Made by a program: the position numbers and the translations under genes. The notes beneath the pieces are model-generated. The model was not told where the DNA came from and ran no database searches. It worked only from the letters and a program-made list of their open reading frames with translations. Shown piece by piece: positions 3,403-25,864 of a stretch of DNA of 25,864 nt (its first letter is position 1; every line of letters starts with the position of its first letter). The stretch comes from Verrucomicrobiota bacterium (GTDB taxonomy: Bacteria > Verrucomicrobiota > Verrucomicrobiia > Limisphaerales > CANJSG01), in contig JBBRDN010000038.1 of the NCBI GenBank assembly GCA_038203875.1, forward strand, positions 1-25,864, read 5' to 3'.

Positions 3403-4296
3403 TCACTTCGGGAGCTCCACGACGAGGCGGAATCCGTTGTCGGCATTGCGGGCCGAAGGGCTGTTCCGATACCGGGCCGCCGACCGGCAGAACTTCGCGT
3501 CTCTCAACCACGATCCGCCACGCAGCACTCGGCGCGGAGTGTCGACGGCGGAAGCGGGTCCGGCCGGATCGACTACGGCCGTCGAGGCGTTAGGAGCGTG
3601 CCAGTCTGAACACCATTCAAAGACGTTGCCGGCCATGTCATGCAGACCCCAAAAGTTCGCGCGCTTTCCTCCGACGGGATGCGTCGAGCCGCCCGAGTTG
3701 CCGAGGTGCCAGGCGATTTCGTCCGCTGTTCCCGATTGGAACGCACCGGTGCTTCCCGAACGGCACGCGAACTCCCATTCCGCTTCCGACGGAAGACGGC
3801 AGACGCGACCGGCCTTGCGCGAGACCCAGGAACAGAAAGCGCGTGCATCATCGAATGTCACCATCACGACGGGATGCGTCGCAATCTGCGGGAATCCGGG
3901 ATTCCGCCACGTGAACTCCTTCCGCTGGACGAGTTCCTTGCCGTTCCAACCGAAGCCGCCCGAAGGACCACGCTCGGCCTCGGTGCGGTAACCGGTGTCG
4001 CGGGTGAAAGCCTCGAACTGCCCGACAGTGACGGATTCGCGGCCGATGAAGTAGTCGCGGGTCAATCGCGCCCGATGCTGGAGCTCATCGGGATTTCGGC
4101 CGGGTTCGTTGGTTGGAGAGCCCATCATGAATTCCCCCGCGGTGATCCGGACTAGTTCGACCGCCTGGCCATTCGTCAGCGATATCGACAGTCCGGGAGC
4201 CGCCGCGAGCAGACCGTTCGTTCCCCAGAAACAGGCGACAGAAAGCAGGAGGGCGGTCAGCTGTCGACGGCCTTGGACTAGGGGCCACGAATTCAT
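3403..4296 (-). CDS. Exported FGE-sulfatase (SUMF1/EgtB/PvdO) domain protein
   Basis: N-terminal signal-like segment MNSWPLVQGRRQLTALLLSVACFWGTNGLLAAAPG. Family motifs present: HPVVMVTFDDARAFCSW, RLPSEAEWEFACRSG, GNVFEWCSDW, VLRGGSW, NGFRLV. The CxxxxC catalytic pair of true formylglycine-generating enzymes is not visible after RGGSW. Confidence 0.85.
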   Translation of the reverse strand: MNSWPLVQGRRQLTALLLSVACFWGTNGLLAAAPGLSISLTNGQAVELVRITAGEFMMGSPTNEPGRNPDELQHRARLTRDYFIGRESVTVGQFEAFTRDTGYRTEAERGPSGGFGWNGKELVQRKEFTWRNPGFPQIATHPVVMVTFDDARAFCSWVSRKAGRVCRLPSEAEWEFACRSGSTGAFQSGTADEIAWHLGNSGGSTHPVGGKRANFWGLHDMAGNVFEWCSDWHAPNASTAVVDPAGPASAVDTPRRVLRGGSWLRDAKFCRSAARYRNSPSARNADNGFRLVVELPK

Positions 4297-4695: not shown

Positions 4696-5178
4696 ATGCC
4701 CGCCTCAGCCAAACCCGGAACAAAGGCCGTCAGCGTGCGGTTGATTTGCGAAGCTCTGCCTCCAGATCGTTTCGAGGGCTTCGACGGTCGCCACGATGTC
4801 AGGGCCTACTTGCAGACGAAAGACGGCCATGAGCCGGGGCAACCTTCGGGGAAAACGGCGCTGCATTGGCTCACGGAAATCACCGTTAAATCCGACGCGA
4901 AGGGAAACCCCGACTTTTCTGGAACAACCGTCCAAGGCAAGCGGGCCGAGCGGTTCTTTTACCTGAGCTGGTCCAGCGAACTGGGCAGCCAGCGTGCAAT
5001 GTTTCGCCGGATGAAGATTCACCTGCGTTCCGTGACCGAGGCGCAGGTCGCGCAAGGCGTCAAATCCGGCGGAGCCTTGGTCGCCCGCGTCCATGCCGTG
5101 GCCAAGGATGGTGGGCCGGCGTGCGCCTCGGTGCCCCTGCTGGGCGGCGCGTGGAATGTCGAGTCGCAGCCAACGTAA
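4696..5178 (+). CDS. Uncharacterised protein, DUF5990-like
   Basis: 160-aa ORF. The central segment DFSGTTVQGKRAERFFYLSWS....AMFRRMKIHL resembles my recollection of the DUF5990 family (G-P-x-VQG...RF-YL-W...MFRR-K-L). This needs an HMM check. Confidence 0.55.
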   Translation: MPASAKPGTKAVSVRLICEALPPDRFEGFDGRHDVRAYLQTKDGHEPGQPSGKTALHWLTEITVKSDAKGNPDFSGTTVQGKRAERFFYLSWSSELGSQRAMFRRMKIHLRSVTEAQVAQGVKSGGALVARVHAVAKDGGPACASVPLLGGAWNVESQPT

Positions 5179-9388: not shown

Positions 9389-10012
9389 ATGAGGTCGGTC
9401 CACGTCGTTTCCCATCCGATCGTGCAGCACAACCTCGCCCTGCTGCGCGACAAGAGAACCAAGCCGCCCGAGTTCCGGCGCCTCCTTGGCGAGATCGCGA
9501 TGCTGATGGTGTTCAAGGCCACCGAATCTTTCGCCACGCGGCCTCGCAAGGTCACGACGCCGATGGGTCCGGCCACCGGATCGGAGCTTCGCCATGATGT
9601 CCTCGTAGTCCCGGTCCTGCGCGCCGGCCTCGGCATGGCCAATGCCATTCTCCAAGTCATCCCGCAGGCCCAGGTCGGTTTCGTAGGCCTCAAGCGCGAC
9701 GAAAAAACGCTCAAGCCCGTGACCTACCACGAGAGCCTGCCGAAGAACCTCAGCCGGTTCGAAATCCTCCTAGTCGATCCCATGCTGGCCACCGGCGGAT
9801 CGACCATCGCCGCCTTGGACCTGCTCCATGAACGGAACGCCTGCCACGTCCGCATGATCAATCTCGTCTGCGCGCCTGAAGGCATCCGCGCCGTGCGCGC
9901 TAAGTATCCACGGCTCGCCATCTACTCCGCCGCCATCGACACCCGCCTGAACGAACGCGGCTTCATCATCCCCGGACTCGGCGACGCAGGGGACCGACTG
10001 TTCGGCGTCTGA
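9389..10012 (+). CDS. upp: Uracil phosphoribosyltransferase
   Basis: 207 aa with the HPIVQHNLALLRDKRT N-terminus. PRPP loop LVDPMLATGGSTIAAL and C-terminal uracil-binding motif IIPGLGDAGDRLFG. Confidence 0.93.
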   Translation: MRSVHVVSHPIVQHNLALLRDKRTKPPEFRRLLGEIAMLMVFKATESFATRPRKVTTPMGPATGSELRHDVLVVPVLRAGLGMANAILQVIPQAQVGFVGLKRDEKTLKPVTYHESLPKNLSRFEILLVDPMLATGGSTIAALDLLHERNACHVRMINLVCAPEGIRAVRAKYPRLAIYSAAIDTRLNERGFIIPGLGDAGDRLFGV

Positions 10013-12260: not shown

Positions 12261-12803
12261 CTACTCGCCCTTCAGACGGCTCAGGCAAAAGCAGTCCTGC
12301 GGTTCCGGGCTGATGTTTTGGAGGCTTTCCCACCGGCGGAGGATTCCCTCCATCTTGAAGCCGGCTTTCTCCAGCACGCGCCTGGAAGCCGGATTGTCGA
12401 CGTGGGCCACGGTCCACACACGCCAGATCTCCGGCTGGGCCAGCATCCAGTCCGTCCAGGCACGCACGGCTTCGCTCATGTAACCCTGTCCCCAGAACTG
12501 CTTCGCCAGCACATAGCCGAGGCTCGCCTTGCCGGTCTCCGGACGCAGCTCGATCATGCCGAGAATTTGGTCGTCCGAACGTCGTTGGATGATGAAGGGA
12601 TACGCGCTTCCTTCGGTCCACGAATCGATGCACCACGACAGGAACCCGACCGTCTCCGATACATCCACGTGCGGCTTCCAGATGAGGTGACGCGAAACCT
12701 CGGGATCACGCGTGTAGAGCTGGAAGAGCGTCTCCGCGTCCGTCAGCAGCGGCGGACGGAAGCTGAGGCGTTGGCTGAAGAACTCCTTGGGCGGAACGGT
12801 CAT
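12261..12803 (-). CDS. GNAT-family N-acetyltransferase (RimJ/RimL-like)
   Basis: 180 aa. LSFRPPLLTDAETLFQLY is an N-terminus typical of RimJ/L-type GNATs, and QFWGQGYMSEAVRAW is the acetyl-CoA loop. HVDNPASRRVLEKAGFKMEGILR is also present. It starts 6 nt after the upstream stop. Confidence 0.85.
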   Translation of the reverse strand: MTVPPKEFFSQRLSFRPPLLTDAETLFQLYTRDPEVSRHLIWKPHVDVSETVGFLSWCIDSWTEGSAYPFIIQRRSDDQILGMIELRPETGKASLGYVLAKQFWGQGYMSEAVRAWTDWMLAQPEIWRVWTVAHVDNPASRRVLEKAGFKMEGILRRWESLQNISPEPQDCFCLSRLKGE

Positions 12804-12809
12804 GGGAGA

Positions 12810-13742
12810 TCACTTTCCGATGCGGCGGATCTCCAGGCTCCAGTCCGGGCCTGATCCGATTCCATGCTTCTTGGCGAAGCTGTCCATGTTCAAAGCGACT
12901 GAAACCTCCAGCAAACTGTTCAGGAACAGCAGGGGTTCGCCAGCCTTCACCGCACCGAACGTGGCGAGATAAGGCGCCTGTCCCGAGTGGACCAGCTTTC
13001 CGTCTTTCAACACCCGGAAGCTGAACCGGTCGCCGATCTTCGCGCCGAGCGTGTCGAAGAGCGGCTTCTCGATATTCGACCAGACGTTGCCGTATTGCAC
13101 GTCGAGCACCGGAATCGTCCCAAACAGCGCACCGTCCTTCGCCGCGGCTTTGGTGTAGGGAATGGCGACGACGCCGTTGGTCAGCCGTGGGCCCACGTCC
13201 TCGAACTTCAGCTTACCCGTCGCGAGCTTCGCGCCCACGTAGGCGAACACGTCGCGGCCGTGGAACGTGTAGCTGGCCTCGCTTCCTTTGAGCCGCTGGC
13301 GGGGCGCGTCGATCTCCCGCAACTCCGCCACGCCGAGCGTCTCGGCGACAAAAGTGAGCGTGCCGTTGTCCGGCGTGACGAAGAGGTGCCCCGTCTTTGC
13401 GCGCATCACCACGCTGCGCCGTTCCGTGCCGACACCGGGATCGACGACGGAGACGAACACGGTGTTACTCGGCCAATAGGCGGCGGTCTGCTTCAGCCGG
13501 AACGCGGCTTCCCACACGTTGTAAGGCGGGATCTCGTGGGTGATGTCGAACTGTTTAAGCGCCGAGCTGACACCGAAGGCCACGCCTTTCATCGCCGAGA
13601 CCGCTCCGTCCTTCAGGCTGAAGTCCGACTGGAACACCAACGCCGCCTCTGCGGCGCGAAGCTCTGCGGAGAGGTTCGCCGCCAGCAATAGAGCGACAAC
13701 GACTGCACGGACAAACACCGAGAGGAGTAGTTCGAGACTCAT
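12810..13742 (-). CDS. SAM hydroxide adenosyltransferase / SAM hydrolase family protein (DUF62, PF01887-like) with N-terminal signal peptide
   Basis: The ATG at 13742 gives MSLELLLSVFVRAVVVALLLAANLSAELRAAEA, followed by family motifs LVFQSDFSLKDGAVSAMKGV, VVDPGVGTERR, FVTPDNGTLTF and TFHGRDVFAY. The 394-aa ORF-track version (to 13994) overlaps the divergent transporter gene and is rejected. Confidence 0.85.
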   Translation of the reverse strand: MSLELLLSVFVRAVVVALLLAANLSAELRAAEAALVFQSDFSLKDGAVSAMKGVAFGVSSALKQFDITHEIPPYNVWEAAFRLKQTAAYWPSNTVFVSVVDPGVGTERRSVVMRAKTGHLFVTPDNGTLTFVAETLGVAELREIDAPRQRLKGSEASYTFHGRDVFAYVGAKLATGKLKFEDVGPRLTNGVVAIPYTKAAAKDGALFGTIPVLDVQYGNVWSNIEKPLFDTLGAKIGDRFSFRVLKDGKLVHSGQAPYLATFGAVKAGEPLLFLNSLLEVSVALNMDSFAKKHGIGSGPDWSLEIRRIGK

Positions 13743-13854
13743 AAAGCGTTCTGTTCTGACGAAGCCGTGAGATTCCAATATCGAATGGTTGAAGGCAAAT
13801 CCGGAGCGGGAGTTGCGATGCGGCCCCGTTGGGCCAGAGTGCCGTTGCTGTCGC

Positions 13855-14832
13855 GTGAAAAACTTTCTGGCCCGCAACTGGTTCATCGTCTCGCTGCCCC
13901 TGGCCATCGCACTCGCATGGCTTGTGCCCGATGCGGGCGCTACGGGTGGATGGCTACGGAGCGAGGTCACCACCAAGCTGGGCGTCGCCCTCATCTTTCT
14001 TTTTCAAGGGCTTACGTTGCCGTCGTCCGCCCTCAAGCAGGGCGCCTCCCAATGGCGGCTCCACCTGCTTGTGCAGGCCTTCACGTTCCTTTTGTTTCCA
14101 CTGATCGGCATGGCGCTGGATGCGTTGGCCGGACGTCATCTGCCGCCGGATCTGCGACTTGGTTTCCTGTTCCTGTGCGTTCTGCCTTCGACGGTGTCCA
14201 TGTCCGTCGTGCTGACGGGACTCGCCGGCGGCAACACGGTGGGCGCCATCTTCAACGCCGCTCTCTCGAACATCATCGGCGTGTTCATCACGCCGATCTG
14301 GGTCGCTTGGCTCATGAAATCCGGGGGCCAATCCCAGCCTCTCGGCGGGGTGGTGAAGGAGGTCGTCGTGCTGCTGTTGCCGCCGTTGGCGGTCGGGCAA
14401 CTCATCCGTGTGTTCGCCACGTCCTGGGCCGACCAGAACAAGAAGCGCCTCGGCAACGCCGCCAGCGGACTGATCCTGTTCCTGGTCTTCACCGCGTTCT
14501 GCAATTCGGTGAAGGCGCAGTTCTGGGCACAGCAGAGTGCGGGCGTTCTGTTCGCGGCATCGGCTGGAGTGGTTCTGATCTTCATCATCGCTATCGCTTT
14601 AATCGAAGTCCTCGCACGGATGTTCAAACTGGATCGGCCCGATCGCATCACCGCCACTTTCTGCGCCCCGCAAAAAACGATCGCCTCCGGCATCCCGCTT
14701 GCGAAGGCCATCTTCGGCGCCCACCCGGGCCTCGGACTGATCTTGCTCCCGATCCTCTTCTACCATCCGCTCCAACTGATCGTCTGCGGAGTGCTAGCCG
14801 ACCGATTCGCCCGCCAGAAGCCGAAACCGTAA
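13855..14832 (+). CDS. Bile acid:sodium symporter (BASS/SBF-like) family transporter
   Basis: Polytopic membrane protein. VKNFLARNWFIVSLPLAIALAWLVPDAG resembles the N-terminus of YfeH/SBF-like proteins, and multiple TM helices follow (LGFLFLCVLPSTVSMSVVLTGLAGGN etc.). The start is ambiguous: GTG 13855 is preferred, and TTG 13789 is the longest option. Confidence 0.8.
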   Translation: MKNFLARNWFIVSLPLAIALAWLVPDAGATGGWLRSEVTTKLGVALIFLFQGLTLPSSALKQGASQWRLHLLVQAFTFLLFPLIGMALDALAGRHLPPDLRLGFLFLCVLPSTVSMSVVLTGLAGGNTVGAIFNAALSNIIGVFITPIWVAWLMKSGGQSQPLGGVVKEVVVLLLPPLAVGQLIRVFATSWADQNKKRLGNAASGLILFLVFTAFCNSVKAQFWAQQSAGVLFAASAGVVLIFIIAIALIEVLARMFKLDRPDRITATFCAPQKTIASGIPLAKAIFGAHPGLGLILLPILFYHPLQLIVCGVLADRFARQKPKP

Positions 14833-14855
14833 GGCGGTCGCCCTCTCGGACGGCG

Positions 14856-15818
14856 TCATTTGATTTGTCGGACGATCTCGCGCAGCACGATCGACGCATG
14901 GGCTGACACCGGGCCTTCGGTCGTGTCGGCGGCATTGACGCCTTCCTGCCCACCGGCGAGATCGCTCAGGCTGCGCACGATCAGAAAAGGTTTCTTGTTG
15001 GCCCAACAGACCTGGGCGATGGCGGTGGACTCCATGTCGAGGCAGTCGGCCTTCCAGACGCCGAAGGCCCATTTGCGATATTCGCGGTTGTCCATGAACA
15101 CCGGTCCGGCAATGCCGTTTCCCCCCACGCTGACCTCCGCTTTCCGACCGGCGTAGGCCAGGGGCGGCACAGTCTTCAGCGCCCGGCGAGCGGCATCCAG
15201 CAGACCGGGATCGGCCGGAAAGAAAGCCTGGCGCTTCGGCTTGTCCATGCCGTCGCGAACCGTCCAGACGTGGTCGGGAAACATGAACCCGAAATTCGTG
15301 TAGGGCGGCTTGAAGTAGTCGGGCAGCACGTAGCCGGAACCGTCCGGCTTCGGATTGAGATAGGCGGCCTCGGAGTGGTGGAACCACTTGTCAGGCACGA
15401 CGACGTCGCCGATGTGGTGGGCGGGATTGATGCCGCCCGCGATGCCGGCGAAGAGCACGTGCGAAATCGGGAACCGCTCCAGGGCCAACTGCGTGGTCAT
15501 GGCCGCGTTCACCATGCTGACGCCGCTGGGGAAAAGCAGGAGATCACGTCCCTCAAACCTCACGTGCTTGAAGGCGACTCCGTTGATGGTCGTGACCTCC
15601 ACCGGTTGACCGCCATTCAGGAAGGCGGCTTCGTTCGCCGCGATCTCGGGGCCATAGGCCGACATCACCGCGACGAAGCGGGTGGCGGGTTGTCCGTGGT
15701 CGGCGGCCTTTCGGGGCGAAGCGCAGCCCGGGACGAAGACGAGGAGGAAGAGGGGGAGAGTCCATCGGAGCGTGAAGGTTCGGTGCGAAACCCGTGTCCG
15801 TTCAGTTGGTGTCTTCAT
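14856..15818 (-). CDS. Exported nucleoside phosphorylase/nucleosidase-fold protein (PNP_UDP_1, MTA/SAH-nucleosidase-like), probable lipoprotein or signal-anchored
   Basis: The N-terminus MKTPTERTRVSHRTFTLRWTLPLFLLVFVPGCASP is a signal sequence with a lipobox-like VPGC. Fold motifs are LLLFPSGVSMVNAAMTTQLAL, FAGIAGGINP and CLDMESTAIAQVC...IVRSLSDLAGG. Its ATG overlaps the permease stop (ATGA at 15815-15818). Confidence 0.8.
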   Translation of the reverse strand: MKTPTERTRVSHRTFTLRWTLPLFLLVFVPGCASPRKAADHGQPATRFVAVMSAYGPEIAANEAAFLNGGQPVEVTTINGVAFKHVRFEGRDLLLFPSGVSMVNAAMTTQLALERFPISHVLFAGIAGGINPAHHIGDVVVPDKWFHHSEAAYLNPKPDGSGYVLPDYFKPPYTNFGFMFPDHVWTVRDGMDKPKRQAFFPADPGLLDAARRALKTVPPLAYAGRKAEVSVGGNGIAGPVFMDNREYRKWAFGVWKADCLDMESTAIAQVCWANKKPFLIVRSLSDLAGGQEGVNAADTTEGPVSAHASIVLREIVRQIK

Positions 15819-17143
15819 TTCCAGATGAGATGGGCGAGGAAAAGGACCCCGAGACCGTAGGCGAGCGGCGTGACTTCACGGCCCCGGCCGCAGCCAAGCA
15901 TGAAGCCGACATAGACCACGAACCCGACCGCCATGCCTTCCGCGATGCTGAAACCGAGCGGCATCAGCAGCATGATCAGGACTGCCGGAACCGCCTTGGC
16001 GAAGTCGCGCAGATCCAGCTCGGCGATGCTTTGCATCATGAAGATGCCGACGATGACCAGAGCCGGGGCGGTTGCCGCGGCAGGGATGATCGCAATCAAC
16101 GGATTGAAGAACAGCGCAAGTAGGAAGCACGCGGCCGTGGTGATTGCGGTGAGTCCGGTGCGACCGCCCGCTTCGACACCCGCGGCGGATTCGATGTAGC
16201 TTGTGACCGTCGATGTTCCGAGCGTGGAACCCACCATCGCGGCCGTCGCATCGGCCGTGAGGGCGCGACCGATCCTGGGGAGGTTGCCATTTGCATCGAG
16301 CAGGCCGGCGCGTTGGCAGACACCGATGAGCGTTCCCATGTTGTCGAACAGGTCCACGAAGAGCAGCGCAAACACGACCGGAAGACACACGCGCCAGTTC
16401 TGCCAGAAGTAGCCGAAGTCCAGTTGGAAGAACGTAGGCGCCAGCGACGCCGGAGCCGCGACGAGCGACGCCGGCAATGAGGTCATCGCCGTTTCCACGC
16501 CATCGGCGCCTTTCGTCTTCAGGAAAAAACCGGCCGCCGTCAGTGCCAGAACGCCAAGGATGATTGCTCCCGGAACCTTCCTCGCGACCAGCACAGCCGT
16601 GAGGATGAGCCCCACCAGAACCAGCAACGGGCCTGGTTGCCCAAAATCGCCCAGCGTCACGAAGGTGGCCGGGTTCGCCACGATCACGCCGCCGTTCTTC
16701 AATCCGATGAACGCGATGAACAGACCGATGCCGCAGGTGATCGCGAGCTTCAGCTCACGCGGAATCGCCTCGATCAGGCGGCGCCTGATGCCGGTGATGG
16801 ACAGGACGAAGAAGATGGCGCCGCTATAGAAGACGAGCCCGAGCGCGGCCTGCCACGGGATCTTCATTGCCCCGCAGACGGTGAAGGCGAAGAAGGCGTT
16901 GATGCCCATCCCGGGCGCGAGGGCGATGGGATAGTTCGTCATCAACGCCATCAGGACCGTCATCAGGGCCGAGGCGAGAGCGGTCGCGGTGATGAGCGCG
17001 CCCTTGTCCATTCCGCTGGCGCTCAGGATTCCGGGATTCACCGCGAGGATGTAGGCCATCGCGGCGAACGTCGTCAGGCCGGCGACGAGCTCCTTGCGGA
17101 CGGTGGTTCCGTGGGCGTTCAGTTGGAAGAGGCGTTCCAGCAT
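15815..17143 (-). CDS. NCS2-family purine base permease (AzgA/PbuG-type adenine/guanine/hypoxanthine transporter)
   Basis: The ATG at 17143 gives MLERLFQLNAHGTTVRKELVAGLTTFAAMAYILAVNPGIL, the hallmark N-terminus of AzgA-like permeases, with ~12 or more hydrophobic helices. The upstream 57-codon extension in the ORF track is Arg/Pro-rich and non-protein-like. Confidence 0.9.
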   Translation of the reverse strand: MLERLFQLNAHGTTVRKELVAGLTTFAAMAYILAVNPGILSASGMDKGALITATALASALMTVLMALMTNYPIALAPGMGINAFFAFTVCGAMKIPWQAALGLVFYSGAIFFVLSITGIRRRLIEAIPRELKLAITCGIGLFIAFIGLKNGGVIVANPATFVTLGDFGQPGPLLVLVGLILTAVLVARKVPGAIILGVLALTAAGFFLKTKGADGVETAMTSLPASLVAAPASLAPTFFQLDFGYFWQNWRVCLPVVFALLFVDLFDNMGTLIGVCQRAGLLDANGNLPRIGRALTADATAAMVGSTLGTSTVTSYIESAAGVEAGGRTGLTAITTAACFLLALFFNPLIAIIPAAATAPALVIVGIFMMQSIAELDLRDFAKAVPAVLIMLLMPLGFSIAEGMAVGFVVYVGFMLGCGRGREVTPLAYGLGVLFLAHLIWK

Positions 17144-17166
17144 GATGGGGGGTGGAGTGGATGCGT

Positions 17167-19053
17167 TCAGGGACTTGGCAGGACACGGACGGAAAGGGAC
17201 GAAGGCGCGGCGGCGGACCGGTAGACGCGTTGCGTGGCCTTGCGGAAATCCTCCGGCTTCGCCTGCGGGATGGTCACGAAGATCTGGGGATTGCGGTCGA
17301 CGAGCGGAAACCAAGAGCTCTGCACGTGGATTACGACGCGGTGTCCGCGACGGAAGGTGTGGAAGACATCGGGGATGGTGAACTCGATCTTCGTCTGTTT
17401 TCCGGACTCCATCGCCTCAGGTTTCTCGAAGCTGTTGCGGAACTTCCCGCGCATCACGTCGCCTCGGACGAGCTGCTGGTAGCCGCCCATCTTCACGTTC
17501 GCCGGATTCGGAGTCGGATCGGGGAAGTCGCCCGAGTAGGCATCGACCAGTTTGATCACCCAGTCGGAGTCGGTCCCGGTGGTCGAGACGTGAAGCGTGG
17601 CCTTCAGCGGACCGGCCATGGTGAGGTCCTCCGTCAGCGGCTCGGTCTCGTAGACGAGCACGTCCGTCCGGCTCGCGGCGAGCCGCTGGTCTTCGAGCGG
17701 GTAGTGACGCGGATAGCTCGTCGACATCTCCGCAGTGTAGGGAACCGGTTTCGCCGGATCGCTGACGTATTCATCGAAGGCCTCGCCGGTCGACGTCGGC
17801 GGTGCGAAAGCCATCTTGCCCTTCGCCTGAAAGTAGAGCGTCCGCTCCACTGATTTCTTAGGCGGCCAGGCATCGAAGCGTTTCCATTGAAGCGTGCCCA
17901 TCTCGAAGACCATGGCTTCTGGCAGCGCGAAATTCGTGTCGTCCTTCAGATAATGCCGGAAGAATGGAAGCTCGATCTTCTCGCGGTAGAACTCGGAGGT
18001 CTTCGCCTTGAAGTCGACGCTGCCGAGCTTGTCGCCAGGGCCTCGCCCCCAGGCACCGTGCGACCACGGACCCATCACAAGGAGGTTGGTGATGCCGGGG
18101 TTCAGCTTCTCCGTCCAACGGTAGGTCTCGAGCGCGCCGAACAGATCCTCGGCGTCGAACCACCCGCCCACGGTCAATACGGCGCAGCGGACGTTCTTCA
18201 AGTGGGGCCGGATATTGCGGGCCTTCCAGTAGTCGTCGTAGGTGGGATGCGACAGGAACTCCTTCCATTCGGGAACCCGGCCTTTGAGATGTTTCGACTC
18301 CAACTCGGACAACGATCCCGCGCGCAGGAAGAAGTCGTAGCCATCGGGCGTGCCGAAGTTGAAAGGTTTCAAGTCCTCATGCAGCGGATCTTCGGCGCGT
18401 TGGGCGAATGTATGAAAGAATCCCACGTTCTGTGTGAGGTAGACGGCGCCGTTGTGGTGCATGTCGTCGCCGATGAACCAGTCGGTGATCGGCGCCTGCG
18501 GCGACGCGGCCTTGAGCGCGGGATGGCCGTCGATCATGCCCATGGACGTGTAGAAGCCGGGATAGGAGATGCCGAACATGCCGACACGGCCGTTGTTGTT
18601 AGGGATGTGCTTCACCAGCCAGTCGATCGTGTCCCAGGCGTCGCTGCTTTCATCGATGTCTTTCGGGCCGCTCTTGGCCGGATTGAACGGGCGCACGTGC
18701 ATGAAGACCCCCTCGGAGCCGTAGCGCCCGCGCACGTCCTGCGAGACGAGGATGAACTTGTCCTTGGCCAATGTGAGGAAGGAACCCGACGGATCGCCGA
18801 AATTCGCCGAGCCATAGGGCTTCAGCGCATAGGGCGTGCGCGTGAGCATGATCGGATACGGCTTCAGGTCGTCCTTCGGAGCATAGACGCGCGTCATGAG
18901 CTTCACGCCGTCGCGCATCGGGATCATGTGCTCGAACTTGGTGTAGTGCTCGGCGAACCACGCGGCGTTGTTCGTAGCTGATGCATCCGCGGCATGCAGG
19001 ACTGTCACGGGCGCGAGGAGAAGGGCGAGCAGGAGAAGGAGAACGGGCTTCAT
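17167..19053 (-). CDS. Exported CocE/NonD-family serine hydrolase (S15; X-Pro dipeptidyl peptidase / alpha-amino-acid ester hydrolase-like)
   Basis: The ATG at 19053 gives the signal peptide MKPVLLLLLALLLAPVTVLHAADA. It then reads MIPMRDGVKLMTRVYAP...IMLTRTPY, with nucleophile elbow GMFGISYPGF and a C-terminal jelly-roll region (ATLHVSTTGTDSDWVIKLVD). The 116-codon upstream extension is rejected. Confidence 0.85.
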   Translation of the reverse strand: MKPVLLLLLALLLAPVTVLHAADASATNNAAWFAEHYTKFEHMIPMRDGVKLMTRVYAPKDDLKPYPIMLTRTPYALKPYGSANFGDPSGSFLTLAKDKFILVSQDVRGRYGSEGVFMHVRPFNPAKSGPKDIDESSDAWDTIDWLVKHIPNNNGRVGMFGISYPGFYTSMGMIDGHPALKAASPQAPITDWFIGDDMHHNGAVYLTQNVGFFHTFAQRAEDPLHEDLKPFNFGTPDGYDFFLRAGSLSELESKHLKGRVPEWKEFLSHPTYDDYWKARNIRPHLKNVRCAVLTVGGWFDAEDLFGALETYRWTEKLNPGITNLLVMGPWSHGAWGRGPGDKLGSVDFKAKTSEFYREKIELPFFRHYLKDDTNFALPEAMVFEMGTLQWKRFDAWPPKKSVERTLYFQAKGKMAFAPPTSTGEAFDEYVSDPAKPVPYTAEMSTSYPRHYPLEDQRLAASRTDVLVYETEPLTEDLTMAGPLKATLHVSTTGTDSDWVIKLVDAYSGDFPDPTPNPANVKMGGYQQLVRGDVMRGKFRNSFEKPEAMESGKQTKIEFTIPDVFHTFRRGHRVVIHVQSSWFPLVDRNPQIFVTIPQAKPEDFRKATQRVYRSAAAPSSLSVRVLPSP

Positions 19054-19139
19054 GGGCCGAGGCTGACTTACTTCGGCGCCTCCGTGAAGCCCGCGGCGAT
19101 CTCCGAAAGCCGACTCGGCCGAGAGCAAAGCGGTCATGG

Positions 19140-20552
19140 TCAATGGACGATCCCCCAGCGCCGTTTGGCGAAGCCGTAGCTGATAGGCTTGGAATCCTGG
19201 AGCGCGGCGGCCCAGTTGGAACCGAGCCTGGTCTCGTAGGCTTTGATGTCGCGGTCGTAGTCGGCGATGAGCTTTTCCTTCAAGGCCGGTTCGGCGAAGG
19301 ACCACTTGAGCGAATTGCGGCCGCATTGGACAAGTTCGTCCCACGTGAGCGCGAACTCGGTCACGGCGGTCATGTATTCGTCGGTCATGTTCGAGTCCCA
19401 CATGCCGGAGTCGTCGGTCGAGAGCGCGACGGGAATGCCTGTGCGGAGCAGTTCCGCGAAATGGTGCTGGGAATAGTTGTCGACGTATTCGAGCAGCAGG
19501 TTGCTGACGAGGTTGATCTCCACCATGGCGATGCCGGAGCGGAGATGGAGCACGAGGTCTTCGTCGGTCAGGATGTTGTTGCCGTGGCCGAGTCGCGTCG
19601 CGCCGAGCAGCAGCGTGTCCCGCATGTGCGGGTTGGCCTCGTCCACTTCGCCCGCATGGATGGCGAGACCGATGCCGGAATGTTTGAGGCGCATCTTGCG
19701 GTAGGTTTCGAGGAAACGGCGCGGGTGGCCTTTGTCGTTGTCCTCGCGGCCGGCCATGTTGATGCCGACCCAGAGATCGCGGTGGCGGCTGACGAAATCG
19801 TAGGCCTGCTCGACCATCTTTTCGGCCACGGGCGTGAAGCGAAGCACCACGACCTGCCAGCGCATCTCGACGCCGGTGGCCTTGGCGTCCGCCTGTTCGA
19901 GACGGGACTTGAGGCGGCGATGAAGTTCGTCGGGATCGACCGCCGCGCCCTTCGCATCGAGGAGCCCGACGGGAATCGTCTGCGGCTCAATATAACGCAC
20001 GCCTTCGGCTCCGTAGCGCTTGGCCGTCTCGACCGTCATCTCCAGGAAGACGTCCACGCTGCGGCCCATCGCGCCGAGACGCGGCCATATCTCCTCGAAG
20101 AACTCGTTGCGGCCTTCGCCTGGGGCATCGAGGCGGAGCGAGTTGATGAACGCTTCGCGCTGCGTTGCGGAGAGGGTGTCGAGCGGGGTGAATTCGGCCT
20201 GGGCGCATGCAGGAAGCGTCTTCCAGGTGAACTCGGCGATGGTCTGGAACTTCCGCCAGGAGTTCGTTTCTTCAGGACATCCACCGGCTTTGAGGCGGGT
20301 GAAGAAGCGATTCCCGCCATTTCGCTTCGCATCGGGGGCGACGGCGAACAGATCCTCCATCCGCCAACTGCCGCCCGCGTGGTGGTGCAGGTCGCCGGCT
20401 TTGGGCATCGCGTAGAGGAAGCGGTAGAGTTCGGCCTTGGTGGCGTTCGTCTTGAACTGGTCGAAGCGCGCGGCGAACTCCGAGGCGGATGCGGAAAGCC
20501 GCAAAAAAGCACAGAGAGCGCAAAGGATAGGCAGCGCAAATCGGAGTTTCAT
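19140..20552 (-). CDS. Exported adenosine deaminase family protein (long, ADA2/ADGF-like architecture)
   Basis: Signal peptide MKLRFALPILCALCAFLRLSASA. Zn and catalytic motifs appear intact: GDLHHHAGGS (HxH), LAIHAGEVDE (His plus Glu), RLGHGNN and ALSTDDSGMW. The spacing from HxH to HAGE is ~243 residues, longer than in classical cytosolic ADA. The ATG overlaps the NUP stop (ATGA at 20549-20552). Confidence 0.85.
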   Translation of the reverse strand: MKLRFALPILCALCAFLRLSASASEFAARFDQFKTNATKAELYRFLYAMPKAGDLHHHAGGSWRMEDLFAVAPDAKRNGGNRFFTRLKAGGCPEETNSWRKFQTIAEFTWKTLPACAQAEFTPLDTLSATQREAFINSLRLDAPGEGRNEFFEEIWPRLGAMGRSVDVFLEMTVETAKRYGAEGVRYIEPQTIPVGLLDAKGAAVDPDELHRRLKSRLEQADAKATGVEMRWQVVVLRFTPVAEKMVEQAYDFVSRHRDLWVGINMAGREDNDKGHPRRFLETYRKMRLKHSGIGLAIHAGEVDEANPHMRDTLLLGATRLGHGNNILTDEDLVLHLRSGIAMVEINLVSNLLLEYVDNYSQHHFAELLRTGIPVALSTDDSGMWDSNMTDEYMTAVTEFALTWDELVQCGRNSLKWSFAEPALKEKLIADYDRDIKAYETRLGSNWAAALQDSKPISYGFAKRRWGIVH

Positions 20553-21583
20553 GGTTTTGGTGCTTCCTTCTCGAACGTGGCCCAGCCGTCGACCAGGGCG
20601 TTCACAACCTTGCTGCCGGCGAGCCAGGCGGATTCGAGGGCCGGTTCCATGCCGCTATATTCCTCGGTCATGCTTTCGGAAGACTTCTGGCCAGGCCTCG
20701 GCATGCAGTAGTTGCTGCCGGTGCGGAGGAAGAGCAGTCGCTGGAAATCCACTTTGCCCATCTTGGAAAGGCGCTCCATCGCGTTGCAGATGCCCTGATC
20801 CTCCATGTTGGTCATGACGAAGTCGCCTTCGCCCCCGGTGTAAAGCCTGGTCCAGTCGTTGGCCCACTTGGTCATCACCGTGCCATGCCAGTAGCGGCAG
20901 GAGCCTAGGCTCTCGCCAAGGATGACCTTGGGCGGCGCGGAACCCTTCTCGAAGCCTGTAAACTCGGCCCGGTGTTTCCTGGCCGCATCCGTTTCCGGAA
21001 TGGCGATGTCCTTGGTCAGAGAATAGGCCCAGCTCACGAGCGACGGGTTGAGCTTCCACGCCATCGGCTTGGGCGCCCAGGCGGCGTCCTTGGGAATCTC
21101 GTTCGGTTTCTTGCCGCCAATGGGGACGATGCCATAGGGCCATTCGGCGGGTGCTTCCCGCGAATCGATCTCGTAGGCGATGTCGCCATCGACGACCCAT
21201 CGCGCCCATGCGGCGCTGCCAACGGACGCGTTCTCGGGATCGACGCCCGCGATGCCGTTGACGAGCCAGTAGGTCTTGGAGAAATCAAACCGGGGATCGG
21301 CCATCAGCGCCATGACCTGCACGGCACTGCGGACGGTAGTGCCGGAGACGAACCCATAGACACCGGCTTTATTATAGCGCAGCTGTCGATCGACGCCGGG
21401 AACGACGATGGAATTGGTCAGTTTCGCGCGCTCGACCCAGAACTGGAATTCGCCCGGCTTGTCACCGGTATCGGCGCCGACTTCGAATGTCGCGACGACC
21501 ACCACCTTGGGGCGGATCATCTGGGCGGCGTCCGAGGCGCCGAAACCGAGAAGGAGTAAAATGATGGACGAGAGGAGTCTCAT
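20549..21583 (-). CDS. Exported 'purine nucleoside permease' (NUP, PF06516-like) family protein, soluble PNP/UDP-like fold
   Basis: The ATG at 21583 gives the signal peptide MRLLSSIILLLLGFGASDAAQ. It then reads KVVVVATFEVGADTGDKPGEFQFW, GVYGFVSGTTVRSAVQVMAL and YWLVNGIAGVDP, as in NUP-family proteins. There is no further hydrophobic helix. Confidence 0.8.
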   Translation of the reverse strand: MRLLSSIILLLLGFGASDAAQMIRPKVVVVATFEVGADTGDKPGEFQFWVERAKLTNSIVVPGVDRQLRYNKAGVYGFVSGTTVRSAVQVMALMADPRFDFSKTYWLVNGIAGVDPENASVGSAAWARWVVDGDIAYEIDSREAPAEWPYGIVPIGGKKPNEIPKDAAWAPKPMAWKLNPSLVSWAYSLTKDIAIPETDAARKHRAEFTGFEKGSAPPKVILGESLGSCRYWHGTVMTKWANDWTRLYTGGEGDFVMTNMEDQGICNAMERLSKMGKVDFQRLLFLRTGSNYCMPRPGQKSSESMTEEYSGMEPALESAWLAGSKVVNALVDGWATFEKEAPKP

Positions 21584-21627
21584 TGAAACTGAACGGTCCC
21601 GGTGGGTGAACGGACGACGGACGCGGT

Positions 21628-21668
21628 CAAAGAAAAACCGGGCGGCGGACGAAAGTCTCGCCGCCCGG
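21628..21668 (-). terminator. Strong rho-independent terminator immediately after the TonB-dependent receptor gene
   Basis: CCGGGCGGCG (21638-21647) is the perfect reverse complement of CGCCGCCCGG (21659-21668). An inner GAC/GTC helix surrounds a 4-nt loop. On the minus-strand RNA the hairpin is followed by UUUUUCUUUG (plus 21628-21637). It starts 18 nt after the TBDT stop codon. Confidence 0.75.
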
Positions 21669-21686
21669 CTCAAACCACAGGAGGAA

Positions 21687-24104
21687 TCAGAACTTGAACG
21701 TGACCGTGCCTTCGGCGCGGAACGGCAGGTCGGCGACGATAGACTCGTTGCCGTAGACGTTGTTCGGCGCGCTCCAGTTCTTCTCGTCGGTGACGTTGAG
21801 AAGCGCGATCTTCGCGTCGAACTTCTTCGACTTGTAGAAGAGCGTCAGGTCAAGGGTGTATTGCATCGGGATGACGAGCGTTCCCGTGTTGTTGTTGTTG
21901 ATCTCGCTGGTCAGGACGACGTTCGCGGAGGCACCGAAGCCCTTGTAGATCTTGTAGGACGCGAGGACGTTCATCAGGTGCTCGGGAACACCCTGGCGCT
22001 GGTAGGTCCCGGGATAGGTCAGGCTGAAGAACCGGTCCTGGAACGGAGTGAGGCTCGTATTGCCGACGTCAAAGAGATCACCCGAATTCTGGGCGTGGAC
22101 CTTGGAGTCGGTGTAGGAATAGCCAAACGTCATGTAGAAGTTCCGCGTCGGCTGGTAGTTGGCCTCGAACTCGACGCCCCGGGTCTCGAACTCGGAAATG
22201 GCGCGGGTCTGCGAGTTCACGTTGCCTCGGGTCTGCTGATAGACCGCAAAGTTCAGGAACAGCTTGCCCTCCATGAGGCTCGACTTGGCGCCCAGCTCGA
22301 ACAATTCGGCCTGCGTGCGCAGGCTTCCCATCGCGAAATCATTGGCCCCGCCCGTCGTGTAGCCGCCGCCGTTGCCGACAGCGCCGGCACCGTTTTGGCT
22401 CCAGTTGTAGCTGAAGTAAGTCGAGACGGTGGGGGTGAGCTTGTAGATGGCGCTGGCGTTGGCGCTGGGCAGTCCGAACGTGACGCTGTCGCCACGGAGG
22501 AATCCGGCGGGATCCTTGTAGTCGAGGTCGACGAAGTCGATCCGACCGCCGCCGAGGATCGAGAACTTGTCGGTGATCCGCCAGTCGTGCTGGTAGTAGG
22601 GCCCGACGAAGAGCGACTTGGATTCGCCGGAATCGCCGTTGTCCGGAGTGTAGAAACGTCCGGGCCATCCCGGGACGGGCACGCTGGTGAACGGGTTCGG
22701 GAAGTTCACCGAGTTGTAGAGGTTGATGAAGTTGTGATCCTTCGTCAGATCCCAGGCGTTGGCCGGCTCGGAAAAGAAGTCGTTGTAGGCCTTGACCTGC
22801 TGGTAGCGGATATCGAGTCCGGTGTTGATCTGGTGGCTGTCGAGGTTGAAGCGGAACTCGGTGCGGTTCTCGATGCTCCAGCTCGGATTGATGATCTCGG
22901 AGTAATAGTAGGACGAGAATGTCTCGCGATCGACGAAGCGGAACAACGTGTTGTTGCCGATGTCGAGCTTGGGCGTCGCATGGAAAGTCTGGACGAGCTG
23001 GGCGTTGTAGCTGAAGCCCTCGGAGTTGTCGCCGGGGCGCAGCAGGCGCTGGCTGCGGTCGATCTGGACCTTGGGCCCGAGCGCGATGCGGTTGACGGCC
23101 GGAAACCCGGAAGTGACCCAACGCGAGTTCTGCGGATCGGAGATCGGAGCGGGTGCACCGCCGACCACGTTGATGTTTCCGAAGGTGATCGGATTACCCG
23201 CTCCGTCACGGTAGCCAAGGAAGGCGCCGCCGGAGAAATCCTGAGCGGGATTGTTGTTCACGCCGGTTTGGTAGGTTCCGTTGTCGATCAACTCCTGGGT
23301 GACACGGTTGATGCCGAAATTCTCGGTGTATCTGGCCCAGAAGAACTCCGTGTTGAAGAACGCCTCATATCGCTCGCTGGGATTCCACTGGAGGGCTCCG
23401 TAGATCGCCTGGGTCTTCTTGAAGCCGTCGGAGTAGTAGCTACCCGAGTCCTCACCCGAATAGCTGACGCGGTAGGCGGCTTTCTTGCCCGGAAGCGGCC
23501 CGCCGAAGTCGGCTGACCAGCGGTAGGTGTCCCACATGCCGACCGTGCCGGAGACGTCGCCGTGGAACTCGTCGAAGAACGGGCGTTTGGTGATGAGGTC
23601 GACGTAGCCGCCGACATACTGGGAGGGGCCGTAGACCGCGGTGGCCGGGCCTTTGACGATGTTGACGGACTCGACGGAGTTAAAATTGACCGGCAGACCG
23701 TTGCCGTTGCTTGTCAGGCCGAGGCGCATACCGTTGACGAAGGTGTCGCCGATCTGCGTGCGGATGTCGGGCGTGGTGGGCGCGCCGAAGTTCGACCGCG
23801 TGTAGGAACTGGAGGTGAGCTTCGAGAAGTCGCGAACGTCCTGGATGCTGATGGCGTCGAGCTGTTCACGGGAAATGATCGTGACGTTGCGCGGCGTCTC
23901 GAGGATCGACCGGTCAGTGCCGTAGACCGAGTTGAAGGGACGGGCCGTCGGGACGACCTGCTCCTCCAGCGGCACGCCTTCGACGATGATACGATCGAGT
24001 TTCGTGACCTCGCTGCCGGCAGGCGGGGTGTTCGTCTGGGCAAGGAGCGGCGTCGCCACGCCGAGGGAGGCGAGCGAGACGGAAAACAGTTTCCGGGTTT
24101 TCAT
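21687..24104 (-). CDS. TonB-dependent outer-membrane receptor
   Basis: The ATG at 24104 gives the signal peptide [24 protein letters not shown] TonB-box-like DRIIVEG follows, then plug motifs ([25 protein letters not shown]) and a long beta-barrel rich in alternating aromatic residues. The C-terminus TVTFKF ends in Phe. There is no N-terminal STN/anti-sigma signalling extension and no SusD-like partner. Confidence 0.9.
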
Positions 24105-24336
24105 TTTGTGCAGTCGGTCCAAAAAGGAACAGGTGTGGTTGGTTGGAAATGAAACACGGCCGCGACCTAGGACATCTTCGAAGCCGTATCCGCAGTCGAG
24201 CAGGGTCCATTCCACCAAGTCAACCCCGGCCGTTCCAGCCCACCCGACGCAGGGCATATCGTCGGGATGCGCGCGCCTTCGAGGCGGTTGGTCGAGCAAA
24301 TCGAACTCCCCGACTCCTCCGGCTCGACAAGTCGGT

Positions 24337-24366
24337 TGAACAGGCGTGGACACTGGACAAGACTCC
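24337..24366. repeat. Intergenic direct repeat, copy 1 (TGAAC-A-GGCG-N2-GACACTGGACAA-N1-CTCC)
   Basis: An exact 12-mer GACACTGGACAA lies at 24349-24360, with flanks similar to copy 2. It sits in the divergent region between the TBDT gene and the adenine deaminase gene. Confidence 0.45.
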
Positions 24367-24422
24367 ATCCGTTATCCGCGCGCGGTTCGCTCGGTCCACC
24401 CGATCGCCGGGTTCCGATTCGA

Positions 24423-24455
24423 TGAACCGGCGACGACCGACACTGGACAATCTCC
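24423..24455. repeat. Intergenic direct repeat, copy 2 (TGAAC-C-GGCG-N6-GACACTGGACAA-N1-CTCC)
   Basis: An exact 12-mer GACACTGGACAA lies at 24439-24450, exactly 90 bp from copy 1. It ends 7 nt before the adenine deaminase ATG. Confidence 0.45.
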
Positions 24456-24457
24456 CA

Positions 24458-25864
24458 ATGATCACACGCTTCTCCGTCGCTCCGCTCTGGCAGATGACCC
24501 GCCAACTTGCCGCTGTCGCCTCGGGCAGATCGGCGCCGGACCTCGTCATCACCGGCGGTCGCGTGTTGTCCACCTACACCGAACGCACGCTGCCCGACCG
24601 CGAGATCTGGATCAGCGGCGGCCGCATCGCCGCGGTGAAGCCGGCTGGCGAGGCCAAGAAGCTGGGTTTCACCACGAAGTTCTACGATGCGCGCGGCGGC
24701 ATCCTCGCGCCGGGCCTGGTTGATCCGCACGTCCACATCGAATCCTCGATGATGACCGCGTGTGCCTATGCCGAAGCCGCGCTGCTCAACGGCACGACCA
24801 CCCTCTTCTGCGACAGCCACGAGATCGGCAATGTCTGCGACACTGCGGGCATCGAATGGATGCTGGAAGATGCGCGGCAGGCGCCGCTAAATATCTTCCT
24901 CACTGTTCCCAGCACCGTTCCGGCGACGAATCCCGACCTCGAGACCGCCGGTGGCGATCTCACACCCGCGAAGATCGGCGCGCTCTTCGACCGATGGCCG
25001 GAAGCCGTTGCGCTCGGCGAGAAGATGGACTTCATCCCGGTCTGCCTGGGCGATGAACGCAGCCACGGACTAATCGCAGAATCGCTCAAGCGCGGCCGGC
25101 CCGTCTGCGGCCACATCTACGGACGAGAATTCGTCGCCGCCTATGCTGCCTCGGGCGTGACGGACACCCATGAAGCCATCGACCGCGAGATCGCCAACGA
25201 CTTCCTCGAAGCCGGCATCTGGATCTTCCTGCGCGGCGGCAATCCCGCGACGCCGTGGCATTCGCTCCCGCTCGCGATCAAGGCCGTCACCGAACTCGGC
25301 GCGAACCCCAAGCGCGTCTGCGTCTGCACCGACGACCGCGATGCGGACGACCTGTTCCTCTTCGGCCTCGACTGGGTCACGCGCCAGGCCATCACCGCCG
25401 GCGTGAAGCCCGAGACGGCTTGGAGCATGGGTTCGCTCCATGGCGCGACGCGCTATGGCTTCGACGGCGAATTCGGCGCGCTCGGCCATTCCCGTCGCGC
25501 GGACATCGTTCTCCTGAACGACTCGCTCGAAGTGCAGAACACCTGGTTCGGCGGCGAGCTCATGGTCGAGAACCGTCAACCAACACCGCTGCTCGCCGAG
25601 CAGGTGAGCAAGCACCGCTACCATTATCCCGCAGCCGCCTACAGCACCGTCCAAGTCTCCGACGACGTGAAACTGATCCCGGAGTTGCCGACCAATACGG
25701 TCACGGCAAACGCCATCCGTGTCGCACTGCCGGGCATCATCACCTTCCATGAACGAATCGAGCTCACGCCTGAGGCTTCATGGGAGGAGCACTTCCGGAA
25801 ACACAACCTCTGCTTCGTCAGCGTGGTTGAACGCTACGGCCGTTCGAAACGCGTCGGTCTGGGT
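24458..25864 (+). CDS. ade: Adenine deaminase (3' end beyond window)
   Basis: This frame is open from ATG 24458 to the window end (469 codons), which is why it is absent from the ORF track. Motifs: [28 protein letters not shown] (metal-binding HxH), [34 protein letters not shown] and ADIVLLND. There is no signal peptide. Confidence 0.88.

Follow-up and report, generated by a model that had tools for sequence, protein, structure and literature searches.

In enterobacteria, the uptake and degradation of nucleosides involve the Tsx channel, NupC and NupG and the cytoplasmic enzymes DeoD and Add. The nearest precedent for the locus described here is the ribose-utilisation (rus) polysaccharide utilisation locus (PUL) of Bacteroides, in which a SusC/SusD pair is encoded together with IUNH-type nucleoside hydrolases and ribokinases, and which targets ribose (bioRxiv 10.1101/574913). 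Cleavage of nucleosides outside the cell followed by import of the products was also described for plants, which possess the apoplastic hydrolase NSH3 and nucleobase/nucleoside importers (PMC4688390). In this study, we analysed a DNA stretch of 25,864 nucleotides from a Verrucomicrobiota bacterium (contig JBBRDN010000038.1 of assembly GCA_038203875.1, positions 1 to 25,864; here called the window), in which the gene of a TonB-dependent receptor (TBDR) heads a set of purine-related genes. We interpret this gene set as a TonB-dependent locus for the utilisation of adenine nucleosides and of adenosines substituted at the 5' position (adenosine and probably S-adenosylmethionine (SAM), 5'-methylthioadenosine (MTA) or S-adenosylhomocysteine (SAH)), and assign a probability of about 0.62 to this reading. 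As this pairing of receptor and purine genes recurs in more than 100 related loci, the locus looks like an undescribed nutrient-uptake system, and full-text literature searches yielded no description of a TBDR linked to NUP, ADA or adenine deaminase. The predicted substrate class and the enzyme set would be new for a TonB-dependent utilisation locus, and the interpretation is supported as far as computational evidence goes. The window has a G+C content of ~63%, and the genomes closest to it were assembled from metagenomes and belong to Verrucomicrobiota of the Limisphaerales/Pedosphaerales type.

Like the rus PUL, the window encodes a TonB-dependent outer-membrane transporter next to predicted nucleoside-cleaving scavenging enzymes. 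However, its receptor is not of the SusC type and has no SusD partner; no SusD family was detected in Pfam scans of the window genes, and the gene after the receptor encodes NUP. Whereas the rus enzymes are IUNH-type hydrolases, NUP and the MTA/SAH-nucleosidase-like (MTAN-like) protein of the window have the MTAN/PNP fold, and the host belongs to the Verrucomicrobiota. Moreover, the window has a deaminase, a SAM hydrolase and a nucleobase permease but no ribokinases, and therefore the useful product would be the base and not ribose. The overall chemistry, from adenosine via inosine to hypoxanthine, would be the same as in enterobacterial uptake. In contrast to the latter, the window locus has an energised outer-membrane receptor, deamination and glycosidic cleavage are proposed to occur in the periplasm, and the base instead of the nucleoside would cross the inner membrane. 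The principle of cleaving outside the cell and importing the products is shared with plant NSH3, although this eukaryotic enzyme is of the IUNH family, unrelated to the window enzymes, and plants possess neither an outer membrane nor TonB.

The receptor gene (21687-24104, minus strand; 805 aa with predicted signal peptide) is followed on the same strand by NUP (20549-21583; PF06516), a soluble, exported MTAN/PNP-fold protein and putative periplasmic 6-oxopurine nucleosidase, and by an exported ADA2/ADGF-like adenosine deaminase (ADA; 19140-20552; 470 aa; Pfam A_deaminase). Further downstream lie an exported CocE/NonD serine hydrolase of the alpha-amino-acid-ester-hydrolase type (17167-19053; Peptidase_S15 and PepX_C, or CocE_NonD), an inner-membrane NCS2-family nucleobase permease (15815-17143; Xan_ur_permease, PF00860, E 1.4e-46) and the MTAN-like putative lipoprotein (14856-15818; 320 aa; PNP_UDP_1, with MTA/SAH nucleosidase as best NCBIfam family), all on the minus strand. 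The start codon of ADA overlaps the stop codon of NUP in an ATGA sequence, and the MTAN-like start overlaps the permease stop in the same way. An exported SAM hydroxide adenosyltransferase (DUF62-type SAM hydrolase; 12810-13742, minus strand, exact start codon uncertain; SAM_HAT_N and SAM_HAT_C) lies on one side of this set, and a divergent cytoplasmic adenine deaminase (Ade; 24458-25864, plus strand, cut by the window end; TIGR01178, E 1.6e-65) on the other. All genes listed in a preliminary description of this DNA were recovered from open reading frames, Pfam and NCBIfam at the same coordinates and in the same families, and both overlaps that it reported were located in the sequence.

An argument for a shared function comes from the conservation of this gene neighbourhood, which was surveyed from two anchors. 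Among 80 NUP loci (one genome per species, scored by tblastn with the window proteins), the receptor lies directly 5' of NUP in 22 and ADA follows NUP in 18, while the permease, the MTAN-like gene and the SAM hydrolase were found in 14, 13 and 9 loci, respectively. The second survey was anchored on the receptor and covered 80 metagenome loci with 46-77% receptor identity, 72 of which had usable flanks. At least one purine partner was present within 5 kb in 61 of these 72 loci (NUP in 28, NCS2 in 27, Ade in 26, ADA in 22, MTAN-like in 14 and SAM hydrolase in 10). When the survey was restricted to the 42 loci with at least 5 kb on each side, a purine partner was found within 8 kb of the receptor in 40 of 42; L126 and L154 are the sole long-flank loci in which none was recognisable over that distance. 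Gene orders and orientations vary widely. In one arrangement, ADA points away from the receptor gene, which faces NCS2 and NUP on the opposite strand, followed by a SAM hydrolase gene in receptor orientation. In others, Ade directly precedes a co-oriented receptor, or the receptor converges with NCS2, beyond which MTAN-like and Ade genes run in receptor direction. In yet another one, a receptor followed by the SAM hydrolase is divergent from a series of NUP, two PNP genes, NCS2 and ADA, and L084-L086 and L171-L172 provide further variants. This association of receptor and purine genes is far beyond chance. Since the linkage survives extensive rearrangement, it is good evidence for a shared function of the receptor and the purine genes, and the co-conservation on which the preliminary description had made its proposal depend is borne out in many rearranged orders.

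NUP co-occurs with ADA: among the long-flank loci, both are present in 23, NUP without ADA in 5, ADA without NUP in 3 and neither in 11, and NUP is anti-correlated with adenine deaminase. This suggests two partly alternative routes, ADA plus NUP and MTAN-like plus Ade, both of which are present in the window. Several clusters contain two NUP paralogues, with 46-48% identity to the window NUP (L003 11164-12129, L005 11164-12129, L053 8913-9893, L059 4614-5606, L089 9833-11023 and 15228-16403). Such paired paralogues suggest NUP enzymes of differing specificity. The same module is found outside the Verrucomicrobiota on a megaplasmid of the alphaproteobacterium Sphingobium sp. V4, where a LysR gene is followed by NUP, a long ADA, a TBDR, a second NUP and an NCS2 permease, with a cytoplasmic-type ADA and an amidohydrolase just upstream. 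The NUP and ADA proteins of this module have signal-like N-termini. Its receptor shares only 24% identity with the window receptor, and the module thus seems to have been put together with a different receptor lineage. A search of the plasmid collection gave no further relative of the Sphingobium receptor. In Opitutales, the purine/receptor loci repeatedly adjoin a manganese-type uptake set consisting of Nramp, a DtxR/MntR-like repressor, ABC-3, Phenol_MetA_deg and Usp genes (L084 2736-6676; L086 1-3685; L171 15887-17407; L172 13058-16265), which may reflect lineage synteny or a metal requirement of the deaminases.

The receptor itself shows the organisation of TBDRs, with a plug at the N-terminus (Pfam PF07715, residues 68-162) ahead of the 22-strand beta-barrel (PF00593, residues 353-764), and has a signal-like N-terminus. 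No NCBIfam equivalog reached its cut-off; the best family was the generic TIGR01783 (124.9 versus 223.5 bits, residues 69-262 only), and the profiles of FoxA, FhuA and other characterised receptors scored far under their cut-offs. PDB matches were restricted to the plug region. The expectation of the preliminary description that the receptor should not cluster with known siderophore or B12 receptors agrees with these results, as no such characterised family is close in NCBIfam or PDB and the gene has no riboswitch.

Periplasmic degradation requires export of the enzymes, which we scored in orthologues from 172 related loci by a home-made heuristic of N-terminal charge and hydrophobicity. The heuristic takes the best candidate start codon and hence leans towards positive calls. 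Signal-like N-termini were found in 114 of 121 NUP, 33 of 43 ADA, 25 of 28 MTAN-like and 22 of 23 SAM hydrolase proteins, as opposed to 2 of 31 adenine deaminases and none of 40 permeases, which served as controls. Since these controls are clean, we consider the export result real. The N-terminal sequences vary among orthologues, and it is the signal character that is the conserved part. A lipobox is present in 12 MTAN-like orthologues and the window copy reads ...LLVFVPGC, so that this protein is probably a lipoprotein. Exported enzymes beside a non-exported Ade, as first proposed from the window sequence, are therefore a conserved property in NUP, ADA, MTAN-like and SAM hydrolase orthologues, and a lack of signal peptides, which would have spoken against the proposal, was not encountered with this heuristic.

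NUP is annotated as a purine nucleoside permease after the name of its family, PF06516, which it matches with an E-value of 1.7e-106 over profile positions 2-312 of 313. We reject a role as membrane permease: the AlphaFold2 (AF2) model (pLDDT 86.5) is a globular alpha/beta protein with a single N-terminal signal helix and without multiple transmembrane helices, and its fold is that of MTAN/PNP enzymes. The best Foldseek matches of the model were MTANs and other PNP/UDP-fold enzymes (probability 1.0, TM-score ~0.7 on the target). Neither the single sequence nor a profile of NUP gave a sequence match in the PDB, and no identical sequence was retrieved for the window NUP. A shallow hhalign comparison covered 15 columns only, whereas a deeper profile alignment with the MTAN-like family was full-length at low probability (18%). 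In this 18%-probability alignment, with which the motif spacing is consistent, M260-E261 of NUP falls on the Met-Glu ribose-binding pair of MTAN, and R287..S290-N291 falls on Arg193..Ser196-Asp197. The catalytic Asp would thereby be replaced by Asn, which is found at this position in 119 of 121 NUPs. In MTAN, Asp197 protonates N7 of adenine, and in trimeric PNPs an Asn at the equivalent position goes along with 6-oxopurine specificity. NUP might therefore use inosine or guanosine as substrate, and this preference would account for its association with a deaminase. The stand-alone NUP of a Caballeronia grimmiae plasmid (L087 8001-8900) is a natural variant with Asp (LRTGSD) where the verrucomicrobial NUPs have Asn. 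Produced in yeast, the NUP of C. albicans permits growth on adenosine without conferring toyocamycin sensitivity (PMC9431476). In our reading, which is not that of the authors, these data would agree better with a nucleosidase outside the cell than with a permease. NUP and the MTAN-like protein resemble cytoplasmic MtnN/Pfs, NUP in fold and the MTAN-like protein in its catalytic residues. In contrast to MtnN/Pfs both are exported, the MTAN-like protein as a predicted lipoprotein with an insertion of ~85 aa and NUP with Asn at the position of Asp197.

The deaminase is ADA2/ADGF-like by fold, as judged from its AF2 model (pLDDT 90.3), while ADGF sequence profiles are not reached. On the query, TM-scores were 0.73-0.75 to ADGF/ADA2 structures (0.74 to 3lgd, 0.75 to 9ntg) versus 0.61-0.63 to ADA1-type structures. 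Together with the signal-like N-terminus, this agrees with the ADGF architecture, in which the ADA barrel carries a helical extension at its N-terminus and an insertion. The motifs HxH, HAGE, GHG and TDD are intact in the translation, and homologues are named 'adenosine deaminase CECR1' by JGI. The domain PF08451 (A_deaminase_N) was not matched in Pfam, and TIGR01431 scored 76.4 bits against a cut-off of 315. With the eukaryotic ADA2/ADGF proteins (human ADA2, 3lgd; Helix pomatia AMP deaminase) it has in common that it is a secreted, long-form enzyme with intact catalytic motifs, but identity is ~18%, and the window protein is bacterial, presumably resides in the periplasm and shares its operon with a predicted nucleosidase. 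In an Acidobacteriota metagenome-assembled genome, a partial protein of 521 aa (P0309) carries the C-terminal end of PNP_UDP_1 (residues 6-66) in frame with a long ADA domain, which may be a nucleosidase-fold/ADA2-like gene fusion or an artefact of assembly or gene calling.

The profile match of the MTAN-like protein is split by its insertion; TIGR01704 was hit with 73.8 bits, exactly the cut-off, and NF004079 with 98.4 versus 169 bits. All 27 MTAN-like sequences retain residues that correspond to E12, M173/E174, R193 and D197 of the E. coli enzyme, and the alignment with PDB 4qez agrees. With the catalytic Asp kept, this protein should release adenine. The SAM hydrolase matches PDB 2zbu at 2.9e-39, and the Asp/Arg/His motifs of DUF62 proteins (DPGVGxxR and FHGRD) are kept, the former as DPGVGTxR. 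It stays below the cut-offs of curated (R)-SAM hydrolase/fluorinase families (114 vs 350, 108 vs 470 and 88 vs 400 bits). Whereas it had been regarded as a mere flank of the cluster, the SAM hydrolase is a core cluster member in relatives. Seven of them have it between ADA and the permease, in the slot of the CocE/NonD gene of the window, and in others it adjoins the receptor.

In 24 of the 42 long-flank loci, the permease gene is at most 8 kb away from the receptor gene. The permease has no NCBIfam match; given an N-terminal similarity to PbuG-type permeases, it may belong to the AzgA subfamily, which is specific for adenine, hypoxanthine and guanine. The window copy of Ade, truncated as it is by the window end, scores 221.6 bits in TIGR01178 against a cut-off of 472.5; full-length orthologues beside the receptor have the Adenine_deam_C domain, and Ade adjoins the receptor in 26 of 72 metagenome loci. 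The CocE/NonD protein was matched by PDB 4pf1 (1e-133) and 1mpx (5e-122). A full-length alignment with both keeps GISYPG (GxSYxG), GDD, D-A-E-D (D-x-E-D) and GPWSH (GPWxH), and the Ser/Asp/His triad, the oxyanion Tyr residues and the acidic cluster for the alpha-amino group are retained. It thus resembles the alpha-amino acid ester hydrolases of Xanthomonas and Acetobacter (1mpx, 2b4k) over its full length (E 1e-122) with catalytic residues kept, but unlike these it is inserted in a purine-scavenging operon, in this lineage only. A true orthologue was found in one of 169 related loci, the nearest relative L001 (91% NUP identity), and as a core step of degradation the hydrolase was therefore rejected on conservation, contrary to the preliminary description. 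The SBF_like (BASS-type) transporter (13789-14832, plus strand; Pfam E 1.1e-96) and the GNAT (12261-12803, minus strand; Pfam) were likewise seen only in L001 among the relatives. Like the ester hydrolase, both are additions specific to this lineage.

With regard to regulation, a k-mer count in 99 receptor upstream regions revealed the motif TGGCAC-N5-NTGC, which matches the -24/-12 consensus of sigma-54 promoters. It is present in 28 of 99 regions versus 0.085 expected, is absent from the opposite strand and lies 40-120 nt 5' of the receptor start codons; a relaxed form occurs in 50 of 99 regions. In relatives, a TGG-N9-YTGCT island at -93 to -112 is preserved between diverged flanks, and in the subclade of the window the island reads TGGAATGGA(C/G)C(C/T)TGCT at -108 to -110 with otherwise diverged spacers. 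No canonical TGGCAC-N5-NTGC match was found in the window. Its promoter-like element TGGAATGGACCCTGCT (24199-24214, minus strand), 110 nt 5' of the receptor start codon, has the degenerate form TGGAAT-N5-CTGC, in which GG, GC and the position are kept and CAC is changed to AAT. A sigma-54-type promoter at the window locus is thus a tentative assignment. A second frequent upstream k-mer motif was rejected as regulatory, as it is the coding 3' end of adenine deaminase. Blastn detected nothing conserved in the receptor upstream regions beyond the nearest relative, a scan for sigma-70 promoters found none, and the Rfam search of the receptor leader gave no riboswitch but two sub-threshold chance matches; no search was aimed at a Fur box. 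RNA folding predicts an intrinsic-terminator-like hairpin (21626-21671, minus strand) that directly follows the stop codon of the receptor gene and ends ~43 nt short of the NUP start codon. It has a 16-bp GC-rich stem followed by a U-run, a folding energy of -45.2 kcal/mol and a z-score of -3.65, and none of 200 shuffled sequences was as stable; a sub-threshold Rfam match to Chloroflexi-1 in this stretch was taken as chance. The genes 3' of it would therefore need read-through or a separate promoter. The hairpin implies unequal expression of the receptor and of the enzymes encoded after it.

Taken together, we propose the following route, in which activities and uptake are inferred from gene content, families, folds, catalytic residues, export signals and linkage. 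The receptor, probably expressed from a sigma-54-type promoter, would bring a scarce substrate over the outer membrane. In the periplasm, the SAM hydrolase would strip methionine off SAM to yield adenosine, the ADA2-like deaminase would convert adenosine to inosine, and NUP, with its MTAN fold and Asn at the leaving-group position, would convert inosine to hypoxanthine. The MTAN-like lipoprotein would release adenine from MTA, SAH or adenosine. Free bases would then enter the cell via the NCS2 permease, and cytoplasmic Ade would turn adenine into hypoxanthine for salvage and ammonia. The preliminary description had proposed scavenging of an adenosine-containing compound; it is in line with the computational checks on export, co-conservation and receptor class, whereas its CocE/NonD step and its placement of the SAM hydrolase had to be given up, and the substrate is a matter of prediction.

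Several points weigh against this route. Adenosine, MTA and SAM are small enough for porins in model bacteria and, since such substrates pass porins, the need for a TBDR is argued from linkage alone. Moreover, 58 of the 80 NUP loci, mostly from Opitutaceae, have NUP alone, and NUP genes on Caballeronia and Azospirillum replicons are without linked purine genes. As the NUP genes of Opitutaceae and of the examined proteobacteria stand alone, NUP does not need this receptor. The loci are related by descent, so that counts and Fisher tests overstate independence. A single transcript of receptor and NUP is not assured, because the strong terminator separates them. The signal-peptide calls come from a home-made heuristic, and the Asn-for-Asp reading depends on the 18%-probability alignment and motif spacing. 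The Opitutales locus adjoins a manganese-uptake cluster, and uptake, enzyme activities and regulation are computational predictions throughout. The main uncertainty concerns the true substrate of the receptor.

It is established that TBDRs mostly serve substrates too big or too scarce for porins. The receptor might import nucleotides, NAD-type dinucleotides or short oligonucleotides, from which the bases would be obtained by phosphatases or nucleases encoded elsewhere, or because the deaminase and PNP-fold proteins act at the nucleotide level. An AMP deaminase of the ADGF family is among the nearest structural relatives of the window deaminase, which makes nucleotides possible substrates. In addition, L086 has a Metallophos gene and L085 a PhoD gene in the vicinity of the receptor gene. 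However, Pfam scans found no phosphatase, nuclease or nucleotidase in the window cluster, none of these recurs among the conserved partners, and the presence of a SAM hydrolase and an MTAN-like enzyme argues for adenosines with a 5'-thio or 5'-sulfonium group instead of phosphates. We therefore consider nucleotide import unlikely, though it deserves to be kept in mind.

Automatic naming of homologues as 'catecholate siderophore receptor', the generic TonB-siderophore subfamily as best NCBIfam match, a plug that resembles those of the enantio-pyochelin and pseudopaline receptors, and the Nramp/MntR-type genes beside the Opitutales locus would all suit an ordinary receptor for metal chelates (siderophores or metallophores) or a vitamin, standing beside purine-salvage genes with which it shares no substrate. 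Yet the family scores are all far under the cut-offs and confined to the plug region, Rfam shows no cobalamin or other riboswitch in the leader, and the promoter-like element is of the sigma-54 type, with no search made for an iron-repressor operator. An accidental neighbour is also hard to reconcile with the purine linkage in 40 of 42 long-flank loci despite rearrangement, and with the unrelated receptor in the Sphingobium module, and we regard this explanation as improbable. The exported enzymes could furthermore protect the periplasm from adenosine analogues that are toxic, or from aminoacyl-nucleoside antibiotics, by defence or detoxification. In this case, the ester hydrolase would take off the aminoacyl group, and the receptor would be an unrelated neighbour or the entry route that is countered. 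Periplasmic deamination or deglycosylation would generally inactivate many nucleoside antibiotics, the carboxylate cluster for recognition of a free alpha-amino group is retained in the ester hydrolase, and the nearby GNAT is related to antibiotic acetyltransferases. But the ester hydrolase and the GNAT are confined to the window and its nearest relative, the base importer and the cytoplasmic adenine deaminase consistently accompany the receptor, a sign that the product is used, and sigma-54 promoters are in general more typical of nutrient control. A defence function thus appears very improbable.

The genes 5' of position 12261 have no evident link to purines, except for a uracil phosphoribosyltransferase of pyrimidine salvage (9389-10012, plus strand), ~2.3 kb off the edge of the purine cluster. 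Between the two lie an M24 peptidase and HtpX, both syntenic in L001. This left part of the window also codes for a glycosyltransferase, a TatD-like protein, an AraC regulator and SppA. A DUF5990 protein (4696-5178, plus strand) and an exported FGE-sulfatase-domain protein (3403-4296, minus strand) show no relation to the purine locus.

It is tempting to extend the reading of the window as an adenine-nucleoside utilisation locus to the family level. The receptors would then form an unrecognised clade of sigma-54-controlled TBDRs for adenine nucleosides and SAM metabolites, working with periplasmic enzymes that degrade the substrate down to the base, and the "purine nucleoside permease" family would be a periplasmic or extracellular 6-oxopurine nucleosidase dependent on a partner deaminase of the ADA2-like type; the locus would be widespread in freshwater and soil Verrucomicrobiota and independently assembled in sphingomonads. 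We hold this wider proposal tentatively, at slightly less than even odds. If true, purine nucleosides and SAM by-products would join the known TonB-dependent substrates, and purine scavenging would be linked to sigma-54 control. Thousands of database entries named "purine nucleoside permease" would be misannotated, as the family would consist of soluble nucleosidase-fold enzymes, and a specificity rule would emerge in which Asn or Asp at the leaving-group position is paired with a deaminase or an adenine deaminase, respectively. Bacteria would possess periplasmic counterparts of the eukaryotic secreted ADA2/ADGF deaminases, and the abundant, uncultured Verrucomicrobiota of freshwater and soil would have a concrete route for the harvest of dissolved purines.

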